The notes below the pieces were generated by a model that had not been told where the DNA came from, searched no databases, and saw only the letters and a program-made list of their open reading frames with translations. A program made the translations under genes and the position numbers. A stretch of 64,000 nt of DNA, taken from assembly GCA_026004595.1 (NCBI GenBank), contig BPJL01000001.1:90486-154485 (forward strand), written 5' to 3'. Numbering within the stretch: position 1 is the stretch's first letter; each line of letters starts with the position of its first letter. Below are positions 1 through 14,478 of the stretch, piece by piece. Source of the DNA: Patescibacteria group bacterium. GTDB lineage: Bacteria; Patescibacteriota; WWE3; UBA101185; UBA10185.

Positions 1-190
1 ACGGCTTATCTCTGCCGTGCAATAGCCTTAAAATATCTTCCTTTTTATAACGCCTATCTTTTCTCTGACCAAAACGAACGGACTGAAGTATACCCTTTTT
101 ATCCCACTGACGCAGGGTGTTTGGATGAACGCTAAGCAATTTACTTGCCTGCGAAAGAGTCAACAGTTGTGGAATCGTTTGATCAATCAT
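1..190 (-). CDS. Excisionase/MerR-type helix-turn-helix DNA-binding protein (N-terminal part; gene runs off window start)
   Basis: Reverse-strand translation from ATG (rc of 188-190) gives MIDQTIPQLLTLSQASKLLSVHPNTLRQWDKKGILQSVRFGQRKDRRYKKEDIL. This is the classic excisionase/MerR-like HTH pattern. It is divergent from the ORF at 212. Confidence 0.5.
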   Translation of the reverse strand, partial: MIDQTIPQLLTLSQASKLLSVHPNTLRQWDKKGILQSVRFGQRKDRRYKKEDILRLLHGRDKP

Positions 191-211
191 AATTGATAGA
201 CAACTCACTAT

Positions 212-1444
212 TTGTTAACATTAGATTACAATAAGCAACAACTTGTTGCAAGTATGAAAAAAAATATGAAGATAAAAAATAGTAAATTCTTCAAGCAGAA
301 AAGCTACGCAACTTGGCAGTTATTTCTTCTTAAATCTCTGCTTCTTGAACCAGATGAAGCAGATGAAATTGAAACTAATTTGGAACTCTATACCTATCCC
401 GCTAAACAAAAGTTCGAACCTTTTAACGAAAGAATGGTGCTAGCAATGCTTCTTGAACTGGCAGAAAACTTTGGAATGGAAATAAGAGGCTTGATTACGG
501 AAGGGGCATTGAGTTACGACGATCCTGATAAACGGCTACAAGTAATATCCACGATAGAAAATAGCAGCGAACCCTTATATCAGAAGGCATTAAAAGGTGG
601 GCTTGATGCAAAACATATCAGCACATTACTCAATAGCAACCTGGAATATCGTGACGACATCCTTGATAGTAAATTCACCCTCTATTTAAAATTCAACGAC
701 AGCAAAAAGGAGATAACTAGACTTCTAAACCACCTGACAGCGCTTTTTATGCTTGGGAAAATCGAGAAACATGGTCAATTTCTCCAACACACTACCTATA
801 CTTATGAGTATCAAAAGGCGACTTTTCTCAAAAATATTTCCTCTTATATTGCTCGGTTTGGTAAGAATTTGGATCTCAAAGAAAGTAAAGACGCAAAGAT
901 CTTCGGCAAAGATACCACTAAGGTTAACTTCCTAGAAACTTTATTAGGGTTAGAAAAAGAAGGGTATATAACAATCATTGGGATCAGCCCTATCAATTTC
1001 GATATACCCCAGCATAGTAAGACAAAACAAGAAGCTATCGTGTCGCTTACTGTCAGCGACGACTTAGCACAAACAGCTCAGTTAGCCAGACCCGACAATG
1101 AGGTTTTCACCTGGGGAAAACTAAAAATTGATATGACAAAGGGGATTATGCAGTATAAAAGCGGGAAAGCAAAAGAAATCTCACCCTCGCAAGATGAAAT
1201 CAAACTCCTAGTTCTTCTGATGCAGACAAATCGAATCGTAAAATACTCCGAAATAGCCAAAAAACTAGATATGAACTGCCAGATGGCAGACCCTGCAGAA
1301 GTCGCCAGGGCAGTGCAGTATCTGCGAAGAAATATTGTCCCCATTCTTGAAGGTGTGGGCATGACTAGGAGAGAAATCCAAAACATGATCATTTCCAAAA
1401 GGAATATCGGCTATAAACTTCGTCGCTCCACTTCTTCCTTATAA
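212..1444 (+). CDS. Hypothetical protein with a C-terminal OmpR/CadC-like winged-helix DNA-binding domain
   Basis: C-terminus reads VQYLRRNIVPILEGVGMTRREIQNMIISKRNIGYKL and resembles trans_reg_C winged helix. The N-terminal 330 aa have no recognisable family. Located inside the putative integrated element. Confidence 0.4.
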   Translation: MLTLDYNKQQLVASMKKNMKIKNSKFFKQKSYATWQLFLLKSLLLEPDEADEIETNLELYTYPAKQKFEPFNERMVLAMLLELAENFGMEIRGLITEGALSYDDPDKRLQVISTIENSSEPLYQKALKGGLDAKHISTLLNSNLEYRDDILDSKFTLYLKFNDSKKEITRLLNHLTALFMLGKIEKHGQFLQHTTYTYEYQKATFLKNISSYIARFGKNLDLKESKDAKIFGKDTTKVNFLETLLGLEKEGYITIIGISPINFDIPQHSKTKQEAIVSLTVSDDLAQTAQLARPDNEVFTWGKLKIDMTKGIMQYKSGKAKEISPSQDEIKLLVLLMQTNRIVKYSEIAKKLDMNCQMADPAEVARAVQYLRRNIVPILEGVGMTRREIQNMIISKRNIGYKLRRSTSSL

Positions 1445-1533
1445 AAATCACAAAAAGGTCGTAAAAGAATCCGTGGCAACTTGCTGTCGCCTTAGTAAGA
1501 ATATGAGTAGTTATCAAAACGATAATTATCACT

Positions 1534-1785
1534 ATGACACAGCAAGAATTAAACGAGAATTACTACCAGACAAGTGATCTATCGCTTGCCACTACCCTCT
1601 CTTTATTCTGCCCCATTGAAAACATTGAGCGCTCCAATCCCCGTAAAGCTGTGTTCCTCTTCCGAAAAACTCCTGAGCTAGAAAAGTTAGTTGATCAGTA
1701 TTTCCGAAATGAAATCAAAATCTCACCACAAGTTTATTTCAACCAGTTACGGGTCATTAAAGCCCGTCTGTATGCCAACGAATAA
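1534..1785 (+). CDS. DUF5659-like small protein
   Basis: 83 aa. Pattern YYQTSDLSLATTLSLF...RKAVFLFRKTPELEKLVDQYF matches the DUF5659 fold that is common in phage and CPR accessory regions. Confidence 0.4.
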   Translation: MTQQELNENYYQTSDLSLATTLSLFCPIENIERSNPRKAVFLFRKTPELEKLVDQYFRNEIKISPQVYFNQLRVIKARLYANE

Positions 1786-1920
1786 TAACTATGATAAGCA
1801 GACAACTTTTATTAGAGCTAAAAACAATTCTTGAAGAAGATTACAGATTAAACTTTACATTTGAGGAGATAACGGAAATTGGCACAGCTCTTTTAAGGTT
1901 CGTCGAAACTCTATTAAAAG

Positions 1921-2322
1921 TTGAGGCTAAATACAACAATGAAAAAAAGGAACACTAATTTCAATTGGAATAAGGCAATCATTTACGACGGCTTACTTGG
2001 CGAGATTTCCCCCGTTGATTGGCAGACACTTACTGCTCTGGTTGCCTTTGTAGATGGACAAGGTAGATGCAGACCGTCATTAGAAGACCTTTGTGCTGTC
2101 TTGGGGTTAGCCAACATTGCCAGCGCAAGCAAACGACTAAGCAAGTTGGAAAAGAAAACTTTTGAAGGACTACCAGTAGTCACTATCAGGCGAGGTAAAA
2201 AGCAAAACGATAAAGGGGTATGGGTATTTACTAATAACCAATACCAGCTACACCCAGCCATACTAGCTGTCTTTAATCTCTCTCCCGCAAGGAAAAGCTA
2301 CCAAATGAGAGAGACAAGCTGA
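1921..2322 (+). CDS. Putative winged-helix DNA-binding protein (replication-initiator-like HTH)
   Basis: ISPVDWQTLTALVAFVDGQGRCRPSLEDLCAVLGLANIASASKRLSKLEK looks like an HTH/winged-helix segment followed by a basic region. Element-associated. Confidence 0.35.
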   Translation: MRLNTTMKKRNTNFNWNKAIIYDGLLGEISPVDWQTLTALVAFVDGQGRCRPSLEDLCAVLGLANIASASKRLSKLEKKTFEGLPVVTIRRGKKQNDKGVWVFTNNQYQLHPAILAVFNLSPARKSYQMRETS

Positions 2323-2349
2323 AGTTAAATAAACTTAATTTGAATAACT

Positions 2350-2748
2350 ATGATAACCATCGATGACATAACAATAAAAATAAGGATGCTCAACCGTCCC
2401 TGGCTTTTAGCCCAAGCAACAGTTATTTTCTCCGACATTATCGAAACAAAAGGTTGGAAGATACTGCGCTCCACTAAAATGCACGAACGATTTCAAGAAG
2501 AGATTTGGATTCAAGCCCCCAGCTTTTCAAAAGGAGCAATAAACGGTAAAGAAGTCTGGGATGAAATTATATGGATCAATGATAGAAGGCTTTACGAACA
2601 AATTGAGGAGAAAATCTATAACGCCTTCTTTGCAAAACGCAATAAAGAAAACGGTGAACAAGGCGTAGCCGAAGCGAGGAAACAAAAAGAAGAAATTGAT
2701 GTTCCAGTAAATCTTGAAGATATCGATATTGACAAAATACCACTATGA
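2350..2748 (+). CDS. SpoVG-like family protein (tentative)
   Basis: The N-terminal 90 aa loosely follow the SpoVG pattern (ITIDDITIKIR...AQATVIFSD...ILRS...). Followed by an acidic/Lys-rich tail. Weak, similarity judged by eye only. Confidence 0.25.
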   Translation: MITIDDITIKIRMLNRPWLLAQATVIFSDIIETKGWKILRSTKMHERFQEEIWIQAPSFSKGAINGKEVWDEIIWINDRRLYEQIEEKIYNAFFAKRNKENGEQGVAEARKQKEEIDVPVNLEDIDIDKIPL

Positions 2749-3200
2749 AAAACACAAAGATACTTTTTATAAGGCTTTATATAGGGACTCTATATAGCAA
2801 CTTTATTGTTCCTTTAAGGGGAAGTAACTATACACAGTTACTATATGGTGATCTTAAGAAGAGATTAGGTTTTTTCTTTGGACAAATACGCTGGCTCGCT
2901 TGGCAAGAACACACAAACGGACTAGTGCAGATTTCGAGCAGAATTAGGGCAACCTTTGAAGCCGATGAACTTGACCAAAACTTGACTGAAACTTGGCTGG
3001 GAACACTTCTCCAACTTTTCTCTAATACTTCCTCAAAAATAGCATCGGATGTCATCAGAATTTCATTGGTTTATCATCAAAAAATTACCACCAAAATACC
3101 ACTGAAATACCACCAGAAATTAGGACATATAAACAAAGTTTGCAAGCAAAATCAAAGAAAGGAATATCAATATAACTTGTCATCTCTTGATATTACTTAA
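2745..3200 (+). CDS. Hypothetical protein
   Basis: 151-aa ORF. Its start overlaps the previous stop (ATGA), suggesting translational coupling. No recognisable domain. Confidence 0.3.
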   Translation: MKNTKILFIRLYIGTLYSNFIVPLRGSNYTQLLYGDLKKRLGFFFGQIRWLAWQEHTNGLVQISSRIRATFEADELDQNLTETWLGTLLQLFSNTSSKIASDVIRISLVYHQKITTKIPLKYHQKLGHINKVCKQNQRKEYQYNLSSLDIT

Positions 3201-3215
3201 CAGTTTATTTATGTT

Positions 3216-4850
3216 GTGTTGCTAACGAAAAAACCTATGAAAACCGTCATATTCTGCCGAGTCAGCAGCAAAGAACAGGAAGAAACAGGTTACTCCCTAC
3301 CTGCTCAGGAGAAATTCTTGAGGGAGTATGCTGATAAACAGGGTTTGGAAGTCACTAAAGTATTTGCAATCTCCGAGTCAGCAGCAGGTAAAGTCCAGAG
3401 GAAAACCTTCAATGAGATGATCGAGTATGTCAGAAAGAAAAACATTTGCTCCATTGTCGTTGAGACAACAGACAGACTTACCAGAAACTTCTCCGATGTG
3501 CCAATTATCGACCAGTGGATTATGGAAAACGAAGAACACCAAATCCACTTGGCAAAAGAAGCCTGTGTGTTACACAATTCCTCCCGTTCCCACGAATGGT
3601 TTATGTGGCGGGTTAAGGTAGCCACAGCCGAGTATTATGTCCGTCTCCTTTCTGAGAATGTCAAAAAGGGTCAAAAAGAAAAACTGGCACAAGGCTGGAT
3701 ACCAACAAAACCGCCAATTGGATACAAAACTGTTGGTGAAACAGGACATAAAATTCATATTATTGACGAGGCAACCGCACCTTTGATCAGAAAGATGTTT
3801 GAGTATTATGCTTCAGGGCAGTTCTCAATCAAACGGCTTGTTATGACAATGTATAGAGAGGGGCTGCGCTCTCCACAAGGAAATAAGATCGTCAATAGCC
3901 GAATCCACTCCCTACTGCGTGATCCTTTTTATATTGGTAAAATAAGATGGAACGATGAAATCTATGACGGCAAACACGAACCTTTAATTAGTAAAGAAAT
4001 ATTTGATAAAGTTCAAGCATTACTTGTGAGTAAAACTACACCCAAATATAACAAGCACGACTACCTTTTCAAAGGCTTAATCCGCTGTGCAGGCTGTGAT
4101 GGTTTAATTACTTGGGAAGTTCATAAAGGACATCGCTATGGACACTGCAACCATTATCACAACTGTACCAAAACCAAATGGGTTAAAGAACCAGAGATTG
4201 AAGAACAACTTTTATCGGGCTTTGACAACCTGAAACTCAAAAACAGCCGTATTGTCGAATGGTTAAAGAAAGCGCTCAAAGAAAGTCACCAGGACGAGAT
4301 TACCTACCACAATAGTACTGTCGGCGAGCTTGAAGCCCGCTACGAGGCGATTCAGAAGCGAATGGACAAGTTATACGATGACAAGCTGGATGAAAAGATT
4401 ACACCCGACTTTTACAGCAGGAAATTCAAGCAGTATTCAGAAGAAAAGGATGAAATTGCCGAAAGCATCAAAAGGCACTCTACCGCCAGCACAGGCTACT
4501 TAAACTTGGGTATTAACCTTTATGAACTCTCCCAGCGAGCCAAAGAGATTTACCTTAAAGCCAAAGAAAAAGGTATGATGGATGAGCAAAAAAGCCTTAT
4601 CAGACTGGTATTTGCCAAGTTAATCCTGGATGAGGACAAATTAAGTTGGGAATACTCCAAAGCCTTTAAAATCCTCTCTGAAGCGGTTGACGAGACTAAT
4701 AGTTCGAAAGTGGTAAAAATTGACGAATTTGAAAAAGGAAAATTCGAACCTACGAAAAAGAGCGATGTTACGGGACAAAAGGACTCTTTGTTGCCCTCTC
4801 GTCCCATCTGGCTCCCCCGGGTGGACTCGAACCACCAACCTGCCGGTTAA
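3216..4850 (+). CDS. Large serine recombinase (serine integrase)
   Basis: N-terminal resolvase catalytic domain (VIFCRVSSKEQEETGYSLPAQE...). Recombinase domain. Zinc-ribbon (CAGCDGLITWEVHKGHRYGHCNHYHNC). Coiled-coil C-terminus. The 3-prime end overlaps tRNA-Asn. Confidence 0.85.
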   Translation: MLLTKKPMKTVIFCRVSSKEQEETGYSLPAQEKFLREYADKQGLEVTKVFAISESAAGKVQRKTFNEMIEYVRKKNICSIVVETTDRLTRNFSDVPIIDQWIMENEEHQIHLAKEACVLHNSSRSHEWFMWRVKVATAEYYVRLLSENVKKGQKEKLAQGWIPTKPPIGYKTVGETGHKIHIIDEATAPLIRKMFEYYASGQFSIKRLVMTMYREGLRSPQGNKIVNSRIHSLLRDPFYIGKIRWNDEIYDGKHEPLISKEIFDKVQALLVSKTTPKYNKHDYLFKGLIRCAGCDGLITWEVHKGHRYGHCNHYHNCTKTKWVKEPEIEEQLLSGFDNLKLKNSRIVEWLKKALKESHQDEITYHNSTVGELEARYEAIQKRMDKLYDDKLDEKITPDFYSRKFKQYSEEKDEIAESIKRHSTASTGYLNLGINLYELSQRAKEIYLKAKEKGMMDEQKSLIRLVFAKLILDEDKLSWEYSKAFKILSEAVDETNSSKVVKIDEFEKGKFEPTKKSDVTGQKDSLLPSRPIWLPRVDSNHQPAG

Positions 4851-4883
4851 CAGCCGGACGCTCTACCATTGAGCTACAGGGGA
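4809..4883 (-). tRNA. tRNA-Asn (anticodon GTT)
   Basis: Reverse complement folds as a 75-nt cloverleaf TCCCCTG TA GCTC AATGGTA GAGC G TCCGG CTGTTAA CCGGC ... GGTGGTTCGAGTCCACC CGGGGGA G CCA. Very similar to E. coli tRNA-Asn. CCA is encoded. Confidence 0.85.
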
Positions 4884-4902: not shown

Positions 4903-5820
4903 TCACATCGTTTTTGGCGGTTCAATGAGTGATTGTGGACTTTCTGGACTCGGTTCCGTTTTCTTCTTTATATCTCTCTTTATCTCCAAAAGCACCAAAA
5001 AGGCAATCAGCAAATTAACAAACATAAACCAGAACGGCACAACTGCAACTAAATTCAAAAAGCCTAGCACAACATCCATCAAAATCGGCAAAGTCATGGC
5101 ATGAAGACCAATTCTCAATGCTTTTTTAAAATCCACCGCAACCTTCATCAATCTGCTAATCCCGAAAATCAGCCCCCCAACTATTGCTATGTAAATGCCC
5201 CGAAACACAGCGTAGTACACAACCGCTCCCGAGAATGTAAACAAGATGATAGCTAGGGGAATCATCCAAGCCGCCAATACGCGAGCGTTTCTGGTTGCCG
5301 CCAAAATTTTAGACTTGTCCAAAGTAGTGTCGGGCATGTCCTTCAAGGGCAAGACATCCGGCTCTCCAGCTTTTCTTACAAGTATGTTTTTTTCATTAAC
5401 TAAAATCATTGTGTCATAGTTCTTAATATCTGCGACTGTTCCATTCTTATCTAAAACTACTAGGTTTTTCGGCATAGTTTCCTGTTCAGGACGTATGGTG
5501 TTTTCCATTTCGGTTTTCGGGAGTTCAAAAATCAATGGAAGGGGTTTATTAACTTCCCATTCTCCGCCTTTTATTGTGAAAACCAAATCTTCGGGGAAGG
5601 ATTTTTCAAGTTCATTCAACGTTTTATCTACATACTGCCTAGCCCTTGGCCCTTCTATCAGATAAGTTCCAGCAGAAGTTATGGTGGCCGCAATAAGTAC
5701 CAAAACCGCGTAATACTTGATTGAAAAATCAAATTTCGTTTTAAAAATCTCCAGATAATATTTCGGAGAAACTATGCTTTTATAGGCGATATAAAAGAAT
5801 GCCTTGATTTTTTTCACCAT
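4903..5820 (-). CDS. Hypothetical polytopic membrane protein (possibly DUF1189-like)
   Basis: 305 aa. One N-terminal TM segment, a soluble middle region, and 4-5 C-terminal TM segments. Confidence 0.35.
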   Translation of the reverse strand: MVKKIKAFFYIAYKSIVSPKYYLEIFKTKFDFSIKYYAVLVLIAATITSAGTYLIEGPRARQYVDKTLNELEKSFPEDLVFTIKGGEWEVNKPLPLIFELPKTEMENTIRPEQETMPKNLVVLDKNGTVADIKNYDTMILVNEKNILVRKAGEPDVLPLKDMPDTTLDKSKILAATRNARVLAAWMIPLAIILFTFSGAVVYYAVFRGIYIAIVGGLIFGISRLMKVAVDFKKALRIGLHAMTLPILMDVVLGFLNLVAVVPFWFMFVNLLIAFLVLLEIKRDIKKKTEPSPESPQSLIEPPKTM

Positions 5821-5917
5821 AGTATTTTAGCATAGGACAGTTTGAGTTTCTGTTTGATAGCCGATCTGCTGGCTCTAAGTTGACTCTCCAACATATATAG
5901 ACTATTATCTATCTGTT

Positions 5918-11451: not shown

Positions 11452-11527
11452 GGGTGATTAGCTCAATTGGCAGAGCTCTCGTCTTATACACGAGCGGTTC
11501 CTGGTTCGATCCCAGGATCACCCACCA
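11452..11527 (+). tRNA. tRNA-Ile (anticodon TAT, reads AUA)
   Basis: 76-nt cloverleaf GGGTGAT TA GCTC AATTGGCA GAGC T CTCGT CTTATAC ACGAG CGGTT CCTGG TTCGATC CCAGG ATCACCC A CCA. The anticodon loop gives UAU. Confidence 0.8.
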
Positions 11528-14276: not shown

Positions 14277-14350
14277 CGCGGGGTGGAGGAATGGCACCTC
14301 ACCGGGCTCATAATCCGGGGGTCCTGGTTCGAGTCCAGGCCCCGCAACCA
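14277..14350 (+). tRNA. Initiator tRNA-fMet (anticodon CAT)
   Basis: CGCGGGGTGGAGG...CCGGGCTCATAATCCGG...CCCCGCAACCA. Closely parallels E. coli tRNA-fMet, including the C1-A72 mismatch and G-rich anticodon stem. CCA is encoded. Confidence 0.85.
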
Positions 14351-14401: not shown

Positions 14402-14478
14402 GCCAACATAGCTCAGTAGGTTAGAGCGGTCGTTTCATAAGCGACAGGTCCCTGGTTCGATCCCAGGTGTTGGCACCA
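14402..14478 (+). tRNA. tRNA-Met (anticodon CAT, elongator; tRNA-Ile2/LAU not excluded)
   Basis: 77-nt cloverleaf GCCAACA TA GCTC AGTAGGTTA GAGC G GTCGT TTCATAA GCGAC AGGTC CCTGG TTCGATC CCAGG TGTTGGC A CCA. Confidence 0.75.

Follow-up and report, generated by a model that had tools for sequence, protein, structure and literature searches.

An integrative island of a Patescibacteria bacterium at tRNA-Asn, with an attachment site inside its large serine recombinase gene

Serine integrases carry out unidirectional attP x attB integration, the reversal of which needs a directionality factor, and they are generally regarded as enzymes that do not target tRNA genes. For the Ralstonia phage phiRSM, a small serine recombinase reportedly uses the 3' end of tRNA-Ser. 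The elements Tn4451, Tn5397 and SCCmec insert at GA dinucleotides or at the 3' end of rlmH/orfX and mostly carry antibiotic resistance genes; we know of no element of this type that has attP in the open reading frame (ORF) of its recombinase or that uses tRNA-Asn. An attP site within an integrase ORF, with exchange of the protein's tail upon integration, is to our knowledge known only for tyrosine recombinases. The attP site of the myxophage Mx8 is said to be located in the int gene, with integration into a tRNA gene altering the integrase (IntP/IntX), and the fusellovirus SSV1 reportedly also has attP in int, where integration splits the integrase gene. Here, we describe a mobile element at one end of a 64,000-nt stretch (the window) of contig BPJL01000001.1, which belongs to KatS3mg101, a metagenome-assembled genome (MAG) of a Patescibacteria bacterium (candidate phyla radiation, CPR). 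With a probability of about 90%, we consider it to be a 12,750-bp integrative island in tRNA-Asn that is driven by a large serine recombinase (LSR) and has attP within the LSR ORF. A literature search covering the context of LOOT RNA, CPR serine recombinases, tRNA-targeting LSRs and attP sites within integrase genes returned no earlier description; its coverage is incomplete and prior work is possible.

The right end of the island lies in the window, where the LSR ORF overlaps the 3' end of tRNA-Asn(GTT) by 42 nt, i.e. 13 codons and the stop. An earlier annotation made from the letters of the window (the sequence-only reading) had noticed that the recombinase gene reads into the tRNA, an arrangement which recurs at related loci, and had placed the other boundary upstream of the window. 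This boundary was indeed located 7.9 kb upstream, in DNA read from a Logan contig of DRR290133 (L085) that shares a 4,872-nt overlap with the window at 100% identity. Two 10-bp copies of CATCTGGCTC, one at L085 1790-1799 (attL) and one in the window (attR), flank 12,750 bp, and TGGCTC within this repeat represents the last six nucleotides of tRNA-Asn. The upstream direct repeat of the tRNA 3' end that had been proposed as a check is therefore present, but it comprises only 10 bp instead of a long stretch of the tRNA, and no long direct repeat of the tRNA 3' end was detected in the window or in the 10 kb upstream. Such a short identity is expected for a serine recombinase.

Empty target sites, likewise proposed as a check, were sought by exact look-up of the neighbouring DUF1189 protein, which returned six contigs (an earlier GTDB scan with this neighbour gave no matches). 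One of the six, from the same sample, merely continues the right flank of the window. In the five others (JGI 3300029893, a 768-kb contig, SRR6488497, SRR28264341, SRR6488498 and SRR5011273), all from one species and independent of each other, the left-flank sequence directly adjoins the DUF1189 gene and tRNA-Asn; genes for a 168/182-aa protein, a 212-aa protein and a polyprenyl synthase were called on this left side in the three longest contigs. The five contigs match the window flank down to position 4805 with 99.7-100% identity and the left flank up to L085 1799 with 99.6-99.8% identity, the two matches overlap by exactly 10 bp, and the tRNA-Asn sequence is identical. Their junction reads ...CCAGTTACATCTGGCTC / CCCCGGGTGG... 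with a single copy of CATCTGGCTC, while the occupied locus shows ...CCAGTTACATCTGGCTC / GAACGATGGTATGATTTCCG... at L085 1790 (attL) and ...CTCGTCCCATCTGGCTC / CCCCGGGTGGACTCGAACC... at window 4805 (attR). The island is thus a precise, polymorphic 12.75-kb insertion within one species: its presence varies, direct repeats flank it, and the LSR gene is terminal and adjoins attR. The small integrative element of the sequence-only reading is integrated at tRNA-Asn as supposed, but it measures 12.75 kb, and the stretch of about 5 kb on which that description was based is its conserved right-end module. As a separate observation, the Logan assembly of DRR290133 has a break of its graph within the tRNA, the island contig reaching to window 4872 and the right-flank contig beginning at 4848. 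A mixture of occupied and empty alleles could produce such a break, as could a repeated tRNA, and neither is proven by it.

The left end was recognised through the C-termini of the LSR homologues. These share the sequence ...RPIWL and then fall into two groups, one with tRNA-derived tails (e.g. PRVDSNHQPAG, PREDSNLQPRS or RGLDSNQQPTG) and one with a native tail of the pattern ..W(D/Y)(D/E)FR(T)..W...(L/I)(E/D)YPE......LL. The tRNA-derived tails are the reverse complement of the CCA, acceptor stem and T-arm of various tRNAs read as protein, with the W codon of RPIWL being the reverse complement of CCA. The two groups raised the suspicion that the attachment site is located inside the ORF and, as no long repeat had been found, an orphaned native tail was searched for instead. 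A regular expression for an attL-like peptide gave no match upstream of any LSR in the first 10 kb upstream of the island or in the closest relatives; attL lay just past these 10 kb and was seen once 3 kb more were added upstream. A hidden Markov model of native LSR tails produced one plus-strand match upstream (L085 1707-1898, E=7e-14). There, the left junction holds an intact orphan LSR tail of 33 codons (ERWYDFRRIDWVKELEYPEF...), without stop or frameshift; at this junction, ...CCAGTTACATCTGGCTC / GAACGATGGTATGATTTCCGAAGAATAGACTGG..., the sequence after the slash encodes ERWYDFRRIDWVKELEYPEFTKKEVDRFLNFIT followed by a stop.

Residues 1-526 of the window LSR come from the element, L526 being the last residue encoded by the shared core, and residues 527-537 (PRVDSNHQPAG) come from the tRNA gene. 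When the P arm (window ...4814) and the P' arm (L085 1800...) are joined, an ORF of 559 aa is reconstructed, compared to 537 aa in the integrated form, and the predicted attP junction of the excised form reads ...CGTCCCATCTGGCTCGAACGATGGTATGA... In this reconstruction, attP lies inside the LSR ORF, 33 codons before the native stop, and integration exchanges the conserved 33-aa tail for 11 tRNA-encoded residues. This most unusual feature of the element had been overlooked in the sequence-only reading: the 'tRNA-encoded' codons replace a conserved native tail. Native tails are found in L015 (79% identity), L043, L069, L095 and P0089-type proteins, and their conservation reaches 60-90 nt past the crossover with protein-like substitutions, which argues that the tail is more than a constraint of the att site. 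In at least nine further loci, among them L031, L034, L037, L044, L048, L051, L054 and L055, an orphan tail likewise marks attL upstream of an LSR that adjoins a tRNA, which implies elements of about 7-11 kb.

Two further kinds of C-terminus were observed. A second class of conserved non-tRNA tails after the RPIWL junction starts with WLP.P... and continues with an amphipathic helix, e.g. PTPVAILNILEDFGYLAQLKAQL; it occurs in L035, L032, L080 and L084 and in the proteins P0004 and P0047, and may represent a second attP type. The protein P0007 (L002 5555-5600; 84% identical) ends in the short tail LAIEEMRTAFC, which is neither tRNA-derived nor native. Its contig of 13 kb is non-circular, as terminal overlap was absent, and continues after the recombinase with genes for a methyltransferase, a 795-aa protein and a PIF1-type helicase. 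This tail could stem from a tandem junction, a secondary site or a plasmid-borne copy.

The recombinase itself is deposited as GIW69351.1 with the annotation 'hypothetical protein'. It matches the Pfam families Resolvase (PF00239, 1.9e-19) and Recombinase (PF07508, 1.5e-16), falls just under the cut-off for Zn_ribbon_recom (PF13408, 22.2 versus 25.3 bits) and is assigned to the integrase family phrog_95 (2e-80); PDB sequence matches are TP901-1 integrase and TnpX. More than 1500 homologues were found. The residues R8, S10, D79, R80 and R83 are invariant in alignments of 26 and 40 sequences, as are the zinc-ribbon cysteines C284, C287, C304 and C310 across the aligned homologues. Judged by domain architecture and catalytic residues, the enzyme is an intact LSR, and not the inactive remnant that was named as the finding that would count against the element. 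An AlphaFold2 (AF2) model of the native-tail homologue P0089 (mean predicted local distance difference test score, pLDDT, of 82.5) displays the canonical architecture of N-terminal domain, recombinase domain and zinc-ribbon domain with a coiled coil, in which beta-ribbon segments 282-330 and 455-469 surround helices 337-441. A disordered linker (488-501) leads to the tail, which is modelled as a small helical module (pLDDT 66-76); by the same token, the tail ...RPIWL-ERWYDFRRIDWVKELEYPEFTKKEVDRFLNFIT of the excised form is probably helical.

The identity common to attL, attR and attB amounts to 10 bp. The core ends in a non-palindromic TC (window 4813-4814), which corresponds to G71-A72 of the tRNA. 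Since each attP arm has a GATGG at +5 to +9 from it, in mirrored arrangement, this TC is the probable central dinucleotide. The right arm of attB is the T-arm of the tRNA (TCGAAC), with CGAA at +14 in 52 of the 57 tRNA-type arms. Class-1 attP right arms carry a T-arm-like T(T/C)CG(A/G)A at +18 or +19, about 5 bp farther out than in attB. An offset rule between attB and attP half-sites has reportedly been worked out for LI integrase in the Van Duyne laboratory, and the outward shift of about 5 bp seen here resembles this offset, a supporting analogy. According to the proposed mechanism, the LSR would insert the island by attP x attB recombination with a crossover within CATCTGGCTC, at the last nucleotides of tRNA-Asn(GTT), the exact position probably being the TC. 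The element resupplies the last 4-6 nucleotides of the tRNA with unchanged sequence and thereby leaves it intact, the 33 tail codons remain as an intact orphan at attL, and the gene comes to end in the reverse complement of the acceptor and T arm.

The overlap of the LSR gene with a tRNA is a property of the whole family. A scan of GTDB species genomes with the recombinase gave 323 matches, 80 of which were kept as loci; gene-content counts refer to 82 loci and LOOT counts to 84. By record title, the 80 loci belong mostly to Patescibacteria MAGs, the named groups being Woese-, Roizman-, Gottesman-, Davies-, Levy-, Pace-, Beckwith-, Collier-, Magasanik- and Saccharibacteria as well as Parcubacteria. 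In IMG/VR, only five relatives were found, with at most 44% identity, and the family appears to be specific to Patescibacteria. ARAGORN identified a tRNA-Asn overlapping the LSR end in 37 of the 80 loci and a tRNA-Gln in five, while eight more have a tRNA-type tail without a tRNA call. A tRNA-type right arm, mostly of tRNA-Asn and sometimes of tRNA-Gln, is present in 57 of 73 parsable junctions, and the core CATCTGGCTC occurs at most junctions among those listed. The recurrence of the overlap at 42 of the 80 loci and the share of tRNA-type arms argue against chance. Two loci without a tRNA call, L008 and L037, were scanned with Rfam and contain a group I intron at the expected tRNA position (Intron_gpI on the minus strand; L037 11607-11836, 95 bits; L008 11621-11817, 55 bits). 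Flanking sequence suggests that the interrupted target is tRNA-Asn with the intron in the anticodon loop; the intron accounts for the missing ARAGORN calls and for some recombinase ORFs running into long 'HPPYKCPQ...' tails.

The islands differ widely in their surroundings and contents. The element in L003/L004 has an 89%-identical LSR and sits at tRNA-Asn, with wholly different flanking genes and a different restriction-modification (RM) cargo (HinfI and methylases). A gene for a DUF5659 protein, one for a 55-aa protein and the LSR gene form the family core, the other genes being variable. Units of 2.6-2.7 kb without an LSR lie between attL and tRNA-Asn in L093 (attL 2909, tRNA 5513-5587) and L094 (attL 3134, tRNA 5815-5887; both in reoriented coordinates). 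Tandem arrays, in which an upstream recombinase with a native-type tail or successive orphan tails can be recognised, are found at L080 4107-11200, L057 3387-11611 and L037 920-3153. Together, these LSR-less units and arrays suggest that elements have entered this tRNA more than once and that mobilisation can occur in trans.

Scans of all island ORFs with Pfam, PHROG and PADLOC, in which several ORFs had no match at all, revealed no capsid, portal, terminase, tail or packaging gene and no relaxase, coupling protein or type IV secretion system component; an oriT may still exist. As capsid, conjugation and recognisable replication genes are missing, the element is a non-viral, non-conjugative island whose LSR serves entry into the chromosome and, presumably, exit. 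The sequence-only reading had seen that the layout is not that of a stereotyped prophage or integrative and conjugative element (ICE), which agrees with the scans: the genes that define prophages, ICEs or integrative mobilizable elements were not among the matches. A decayed prophage, or a phage satellite packaged by a helper, could nevertheless be considered in place of an autonomous island, given that temperate phages typically use serine integrases such as phrog_95 members, that phage genomes also contain DUF5659 and phrog_12720, that the island encodes a YceG-type lytic transglycosylase, and that a size of 7-13 kb and the lack of transfer genes are reminiscent of satellites; the 2.7-kb derivatives without an LSR and the tandem arrays at this tRNA would also accord with mobilisation in trans. 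This origin is improbable in view of the absence of structural and packaging genes in these scans, which is shared by the gene lists of the L002 and L003/L004 contigs, of the near-absence of the family from IMG/VR, and of a cargo that consists mainly of RM genes. Moreover, nothing about the element looks decayed, since no damage is seen in the LSR ORF, in the orphan tail or at either att site. Another alternative limits the island at its left side: the set of about 5 kb from HTH_17 to the LSR gene would be a complete small element ending beside the YceG gene. DNA and protein similarity among L001, L002 and L003 starts abruptly at ATGTTAAC, just left of LOOT, and ends at the tRNA core, and L001 has a TGGCT pentamer at this breakpoint. 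A left end at the pentamer (L001 ~6576) was considered and rejected as a module joint. It is refuted by the empty-site contigs, which lack the entire 12.75 kb including the YceG gene, the methylase cassette and the SEC-C gene, and the true attL with its orphan tail lies 7.9 kb farther left. The breakpoint coincides with the -10 region of what looks like the promoter of the next cargo gene and is flanked by two recurrent upstream sequence classes, which marks it as a joint between mosaic modules and not as an end; a 5-kb element is therefore scarcely conceivable.

Several observations weigh against the integrative-island reading as such. The 7.9 kb upstream of the window come from the Logan assembly of DRR290133 and not from the record of the window itself. 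The dyad-symmetry score for TC ties with other positions and does not single out the crossover. Native-tail LSRs occur inside large chromosomal contigs (L015, L057 and L080), where another orphan tail, a second LSR or a tRNA-Asn farther downstream is also present, and most plausibly represent tandem arrays. The island showed neither replication nor transfer functions that would explain its passage from cell to cell. Finally, a scan for attP junctions detected no excised circle of the exact element; apart from a single native-tail LSR on the 2-kb contig L095, the junctions it gave were of the attL type. This last result, the removal of a conserved 33-aa module by integration and the accumulation of tandem arrays and LSR-less remnants at tRNA-Asn would also be expected if the element had integrated recently and become locked in, the loss of the native tail inactivating the recombinase and turning the insertion into a fixed genomic island. 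We regard such a lock as unlikely, though as the most serious of these alternatives. The orphan tail has remained intact here and in the other integrated loci in which it was found, as expected if excision restores the gene; the integrated LSR ORF is likewise intact, the family is highly mobile across hosts, and the island is polymorphic within one species with flank identities above 99.6%. The integrative-island reading, with an island that would be able to excise, is thus preferred.

The features of the island are compiled in the table below. From attL to attR, the orphan LSR tail is followed by the genes for SEC-C, HTH_17, methyltransferase, HsdS, the 427-aa, 240-aa and YceG-like proteins, LOOT and the genes within the window.

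Table. Annotated features of the tRNA-Asn island, from the left cargo to the target tRNA; positions refer to the window unless a contig is named.
Feature	Position	Strand	Support or remark
SEC-C-motif protein, 304 aa	upstream of window, after orphan tail	-	
Cargo HTH_17, 67 aa	upstream of window		PADLOC mad1-like 2e-11
Type I methyltransferase, 598 aa, N-terminal HSDR_N domain	upstream of window		
HsdS	upstream of window, after 598-aa methyltransferase		
427-aa ORF without assigned family	upstream of window, after HsdS		
240-aa ORF without assigned family	upstream of window	-	
YceG-like protein (lytic transglycosylase type)	upstream of window	-	
LOOT RNA (Rfam RF03000)	L001 6636-6746 = L085 9607-9717, 18-128 nt before window base 1	-	65.9 bits
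HTH_17/MerR-type excisionase-like gene, 63 aa	<1-190, part of stop before base 1	-	PHROG excisionase/MerR 2e-7 to 2e-5
410-aa ORF (called 392 aa from 266), accessory	212-1444	+	sub-threshold Trans_reg_C
Perfect 7-1-7 palindrome GCAACAACTTGTTGC	235-249		read directly; beside HTH_17/410-aa intergenic promoter-like sites
DUF5659 protein, 83 aa	1534-1785	+	Pfam DUF5659 8e-14
55-aa ORF, second family-wide core gene	1791-1958	+	same-strand homologues in 45/82 loci
133-aa DNA-binding-type protein (called 127 aa)	1921-2322	+	phrog_12720 'DNA binding protein' 9e-12; 16/82 loci
132-aa ORF	2350-2748	+	one weak PHROG match, family without function; 16/82 loci
151-aa ORF	2745-3200	+	no family match; 3/82 loci
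LSR, integrated form, 537 aa	3237-4850 (ORF 3216/3237-4850)	+	Pfam, PHROG
attR core CATCTGGCTC	4805-4814		identical to attL core, L085 1790-1799
tRNA-Asn(GTT), integration target (attB)	4809-4883	-	ARAGORN; Rfam tRNA 68.6 bits

LOOT, which is listed in Rfam as a small RNA candidate from metagenomes only, with no host or function assigned, starts 17 nt after the stop of HTH_17, with which it shares the strand. A terminator-like hairpin forms its end, and beyond this lies a promoter-like site for the YceG gene. Folding of the region gives a z-score of -5.2. An nhmmer search detected LOOT in 21 of 84 loci, and the Rfam model scored above its gathering cut-off of 46.4 bits in all eight loci tested (L001, L002, L003, L006, L008, L013, L023 and L040), with 73 to 85.4 bits in the seven relatives of the present island. 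LOOT is a fixed component of these LSR islands of Microgenomates-type CPR bacteria, directly downstream of HTH_17, and LOOT, the excisionase-like HTH_17 gene and small DNA-binding proteins constitute a sub-family module. Regarding the upstream cargo, the cassette at L085 2860-7534 combines the mad1-like HTH_17 gene with the 598-aa HSDR_N methyltransferase, HsdS and the 427-aa ORF; an HsdR is not recognisable, and the cassette may represent a defence system, either of an atypical type I or MADS-like. In L003, the corresponding island has an HTH_17 gene with a HinfI-type type II system instead. Outside the window and the island, the left host flank (L086 12679-17727) encodes a polyprenyl synthase, UbiA, a squalene/phytoene synthase, an amine-oxidase-type desaturase and a lycopene cyclase, which looks like a carotenoid pathway, seemingly unusual for a small-genome Patescibacteria bacterium.

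Within the window, the excisionase-like helix-turn-helix gene of the sequence-only reading does fall into PHROG excisionase families and was called HTH_17 on the Logan contig. Its transcription runs opposite to that of the other module genes, its protein shows 92-94% identity in L003 and L002, and homologues are present in 22 of the 82 loci. A promoter and terminator scan placed overlapping, divergent face-to-face promoter-like sites at L085 9924-9956 and a hairpin at L085 9970-9984, and the region of the palindrome GCAACAACTTGTTGC is a candidate operator or switch region. The DUF5659 assignment was supported by Pfam as well. This protein is the most constant partner of the LSR, being encoded on the strand of the recombinase match in 60 of 82 loci. 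Its AF2 model is confident (pLDDT 88), and a fold search retrieved no PDB relative (best E 0.29) and, from BFVD, only uncharacterised DUF5659 proteins of phages, hence no functional lead; it is a candidate accessory or directionality factor, and the HTH_17 protein is a further candidate for a directionality factor. Other assignments received no significant support. The OmpR-like winged helix ascribed to the 410-aa protein rests on a Trans_reg_C score of 17.8 bits versus a cut-off of 26.2 (E=0.0035), the best PDB match being a response regulator at E=0.99; the protein has two homologues among 5.8 billion proteins and occurs in 14 of 82 loci. For the two supposed winged-helix proteins, the sole support is the phrog_12720 match of the 133-aa ORF, and no SpoVG signal was obtained for the 132-aa ORF, which matched no Pfam family at E<=0.01 and no PDB sequence at E<=5. 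The 55-aa ORF had no family match in Pfam or PHROG. Elsewhere in the window, a tRNA-Ile gene has the anticodon TAT (versus CAT, which needs lysidine modification) at 11452-11527, and two tRNA-Met(CAT) genes are adjacent at 14277-14350 and 14402-14478.

It is hypothesized that the exchange of tails acts as a built-in sensor of the state of the element. While excised, the element would produce an integrase of 559 aa with a tethered helical tail that favours integration or prevents excision; the integrated gene would necessarily make the tail-less 537-aa enzyme with altered directionality or activity. The direction of recombination would then be set partly by the state of the DNA and not only by a separate directionality factor, with LOOT and DUF5659 as regulatory or accessory parts of a CPR-specific system. 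We offer this as a tentative possibility that has less than even odds. If correct, hundreds of natural integrases would be aimed at the near-universal T-arm and acceptor sequence of tRNAs, and if the tail matters for activity, its exchange would be a new kind of directionality control. Mobile elements of the CPR/Patescibacteria are poorly known, and an abundant family of LSR islands now has boundaries defined to the base pair, with RM cargo carried between hosts. An LSR family at the 3' end of tRNAs, the attP arm of which mimics the T-arm at the offset expected for attP, would provide a clean natural example of discrimination between attP and attB. Additionally, the orphan Rfam family LOOT gains a host lineage and a fixed genetic context, and compact, accessory-light integrases with natural att sites may interest genome engineers.

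The closest enzymes are the LSRs of phages such as TP901-1, phiC31, Bxb1 and A118/LI, with which the island recombinase shares the Resolvase and Recombinase domains, the zinc ribbon with an inserted coiled coil, the short identity of attP and attB, and the distal motif of the attP right arm about 5 bp farther out than in attB. Unlike these systems, the island targets the 3' end of a tRNA instead of a protein-coding or intergenic site, its attP lies in the integrase ORF so that the C-terminus is rewritten, and the carrier is an element of 7-13 kb without phage genes in CPR hosts. The location of the att site within the integrase coding sequence is shared with what is reported for Mx8 and SSV1. 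These use tyrosine recombinases, with a different chemistry and longer att cores, whereas the present island relies on a serine recombinase that loses a discrete tail of 33 aa located behind a disordered linker. With Tn4451/TnpX, Tn5397/TndX and SCCmec/CcrAB, the island has in common that an LSR is the sole enzyme for integration and excision of a small cargo element without phage genes; it differs from them in its RM cargo and in its target, tRNA-Asn. Integration at a tRNA 3' end, regeneration of the tRNA, an adjoining integrase gene and accumulation in tandem are features of the tRNA islands of tyrosine integrases and of phiRSM, from which the present island is set apart by the class of its enzyme, theirs being tyrosine or small resolvase-type serine recombinases, and by a repeat of only 10 bp.

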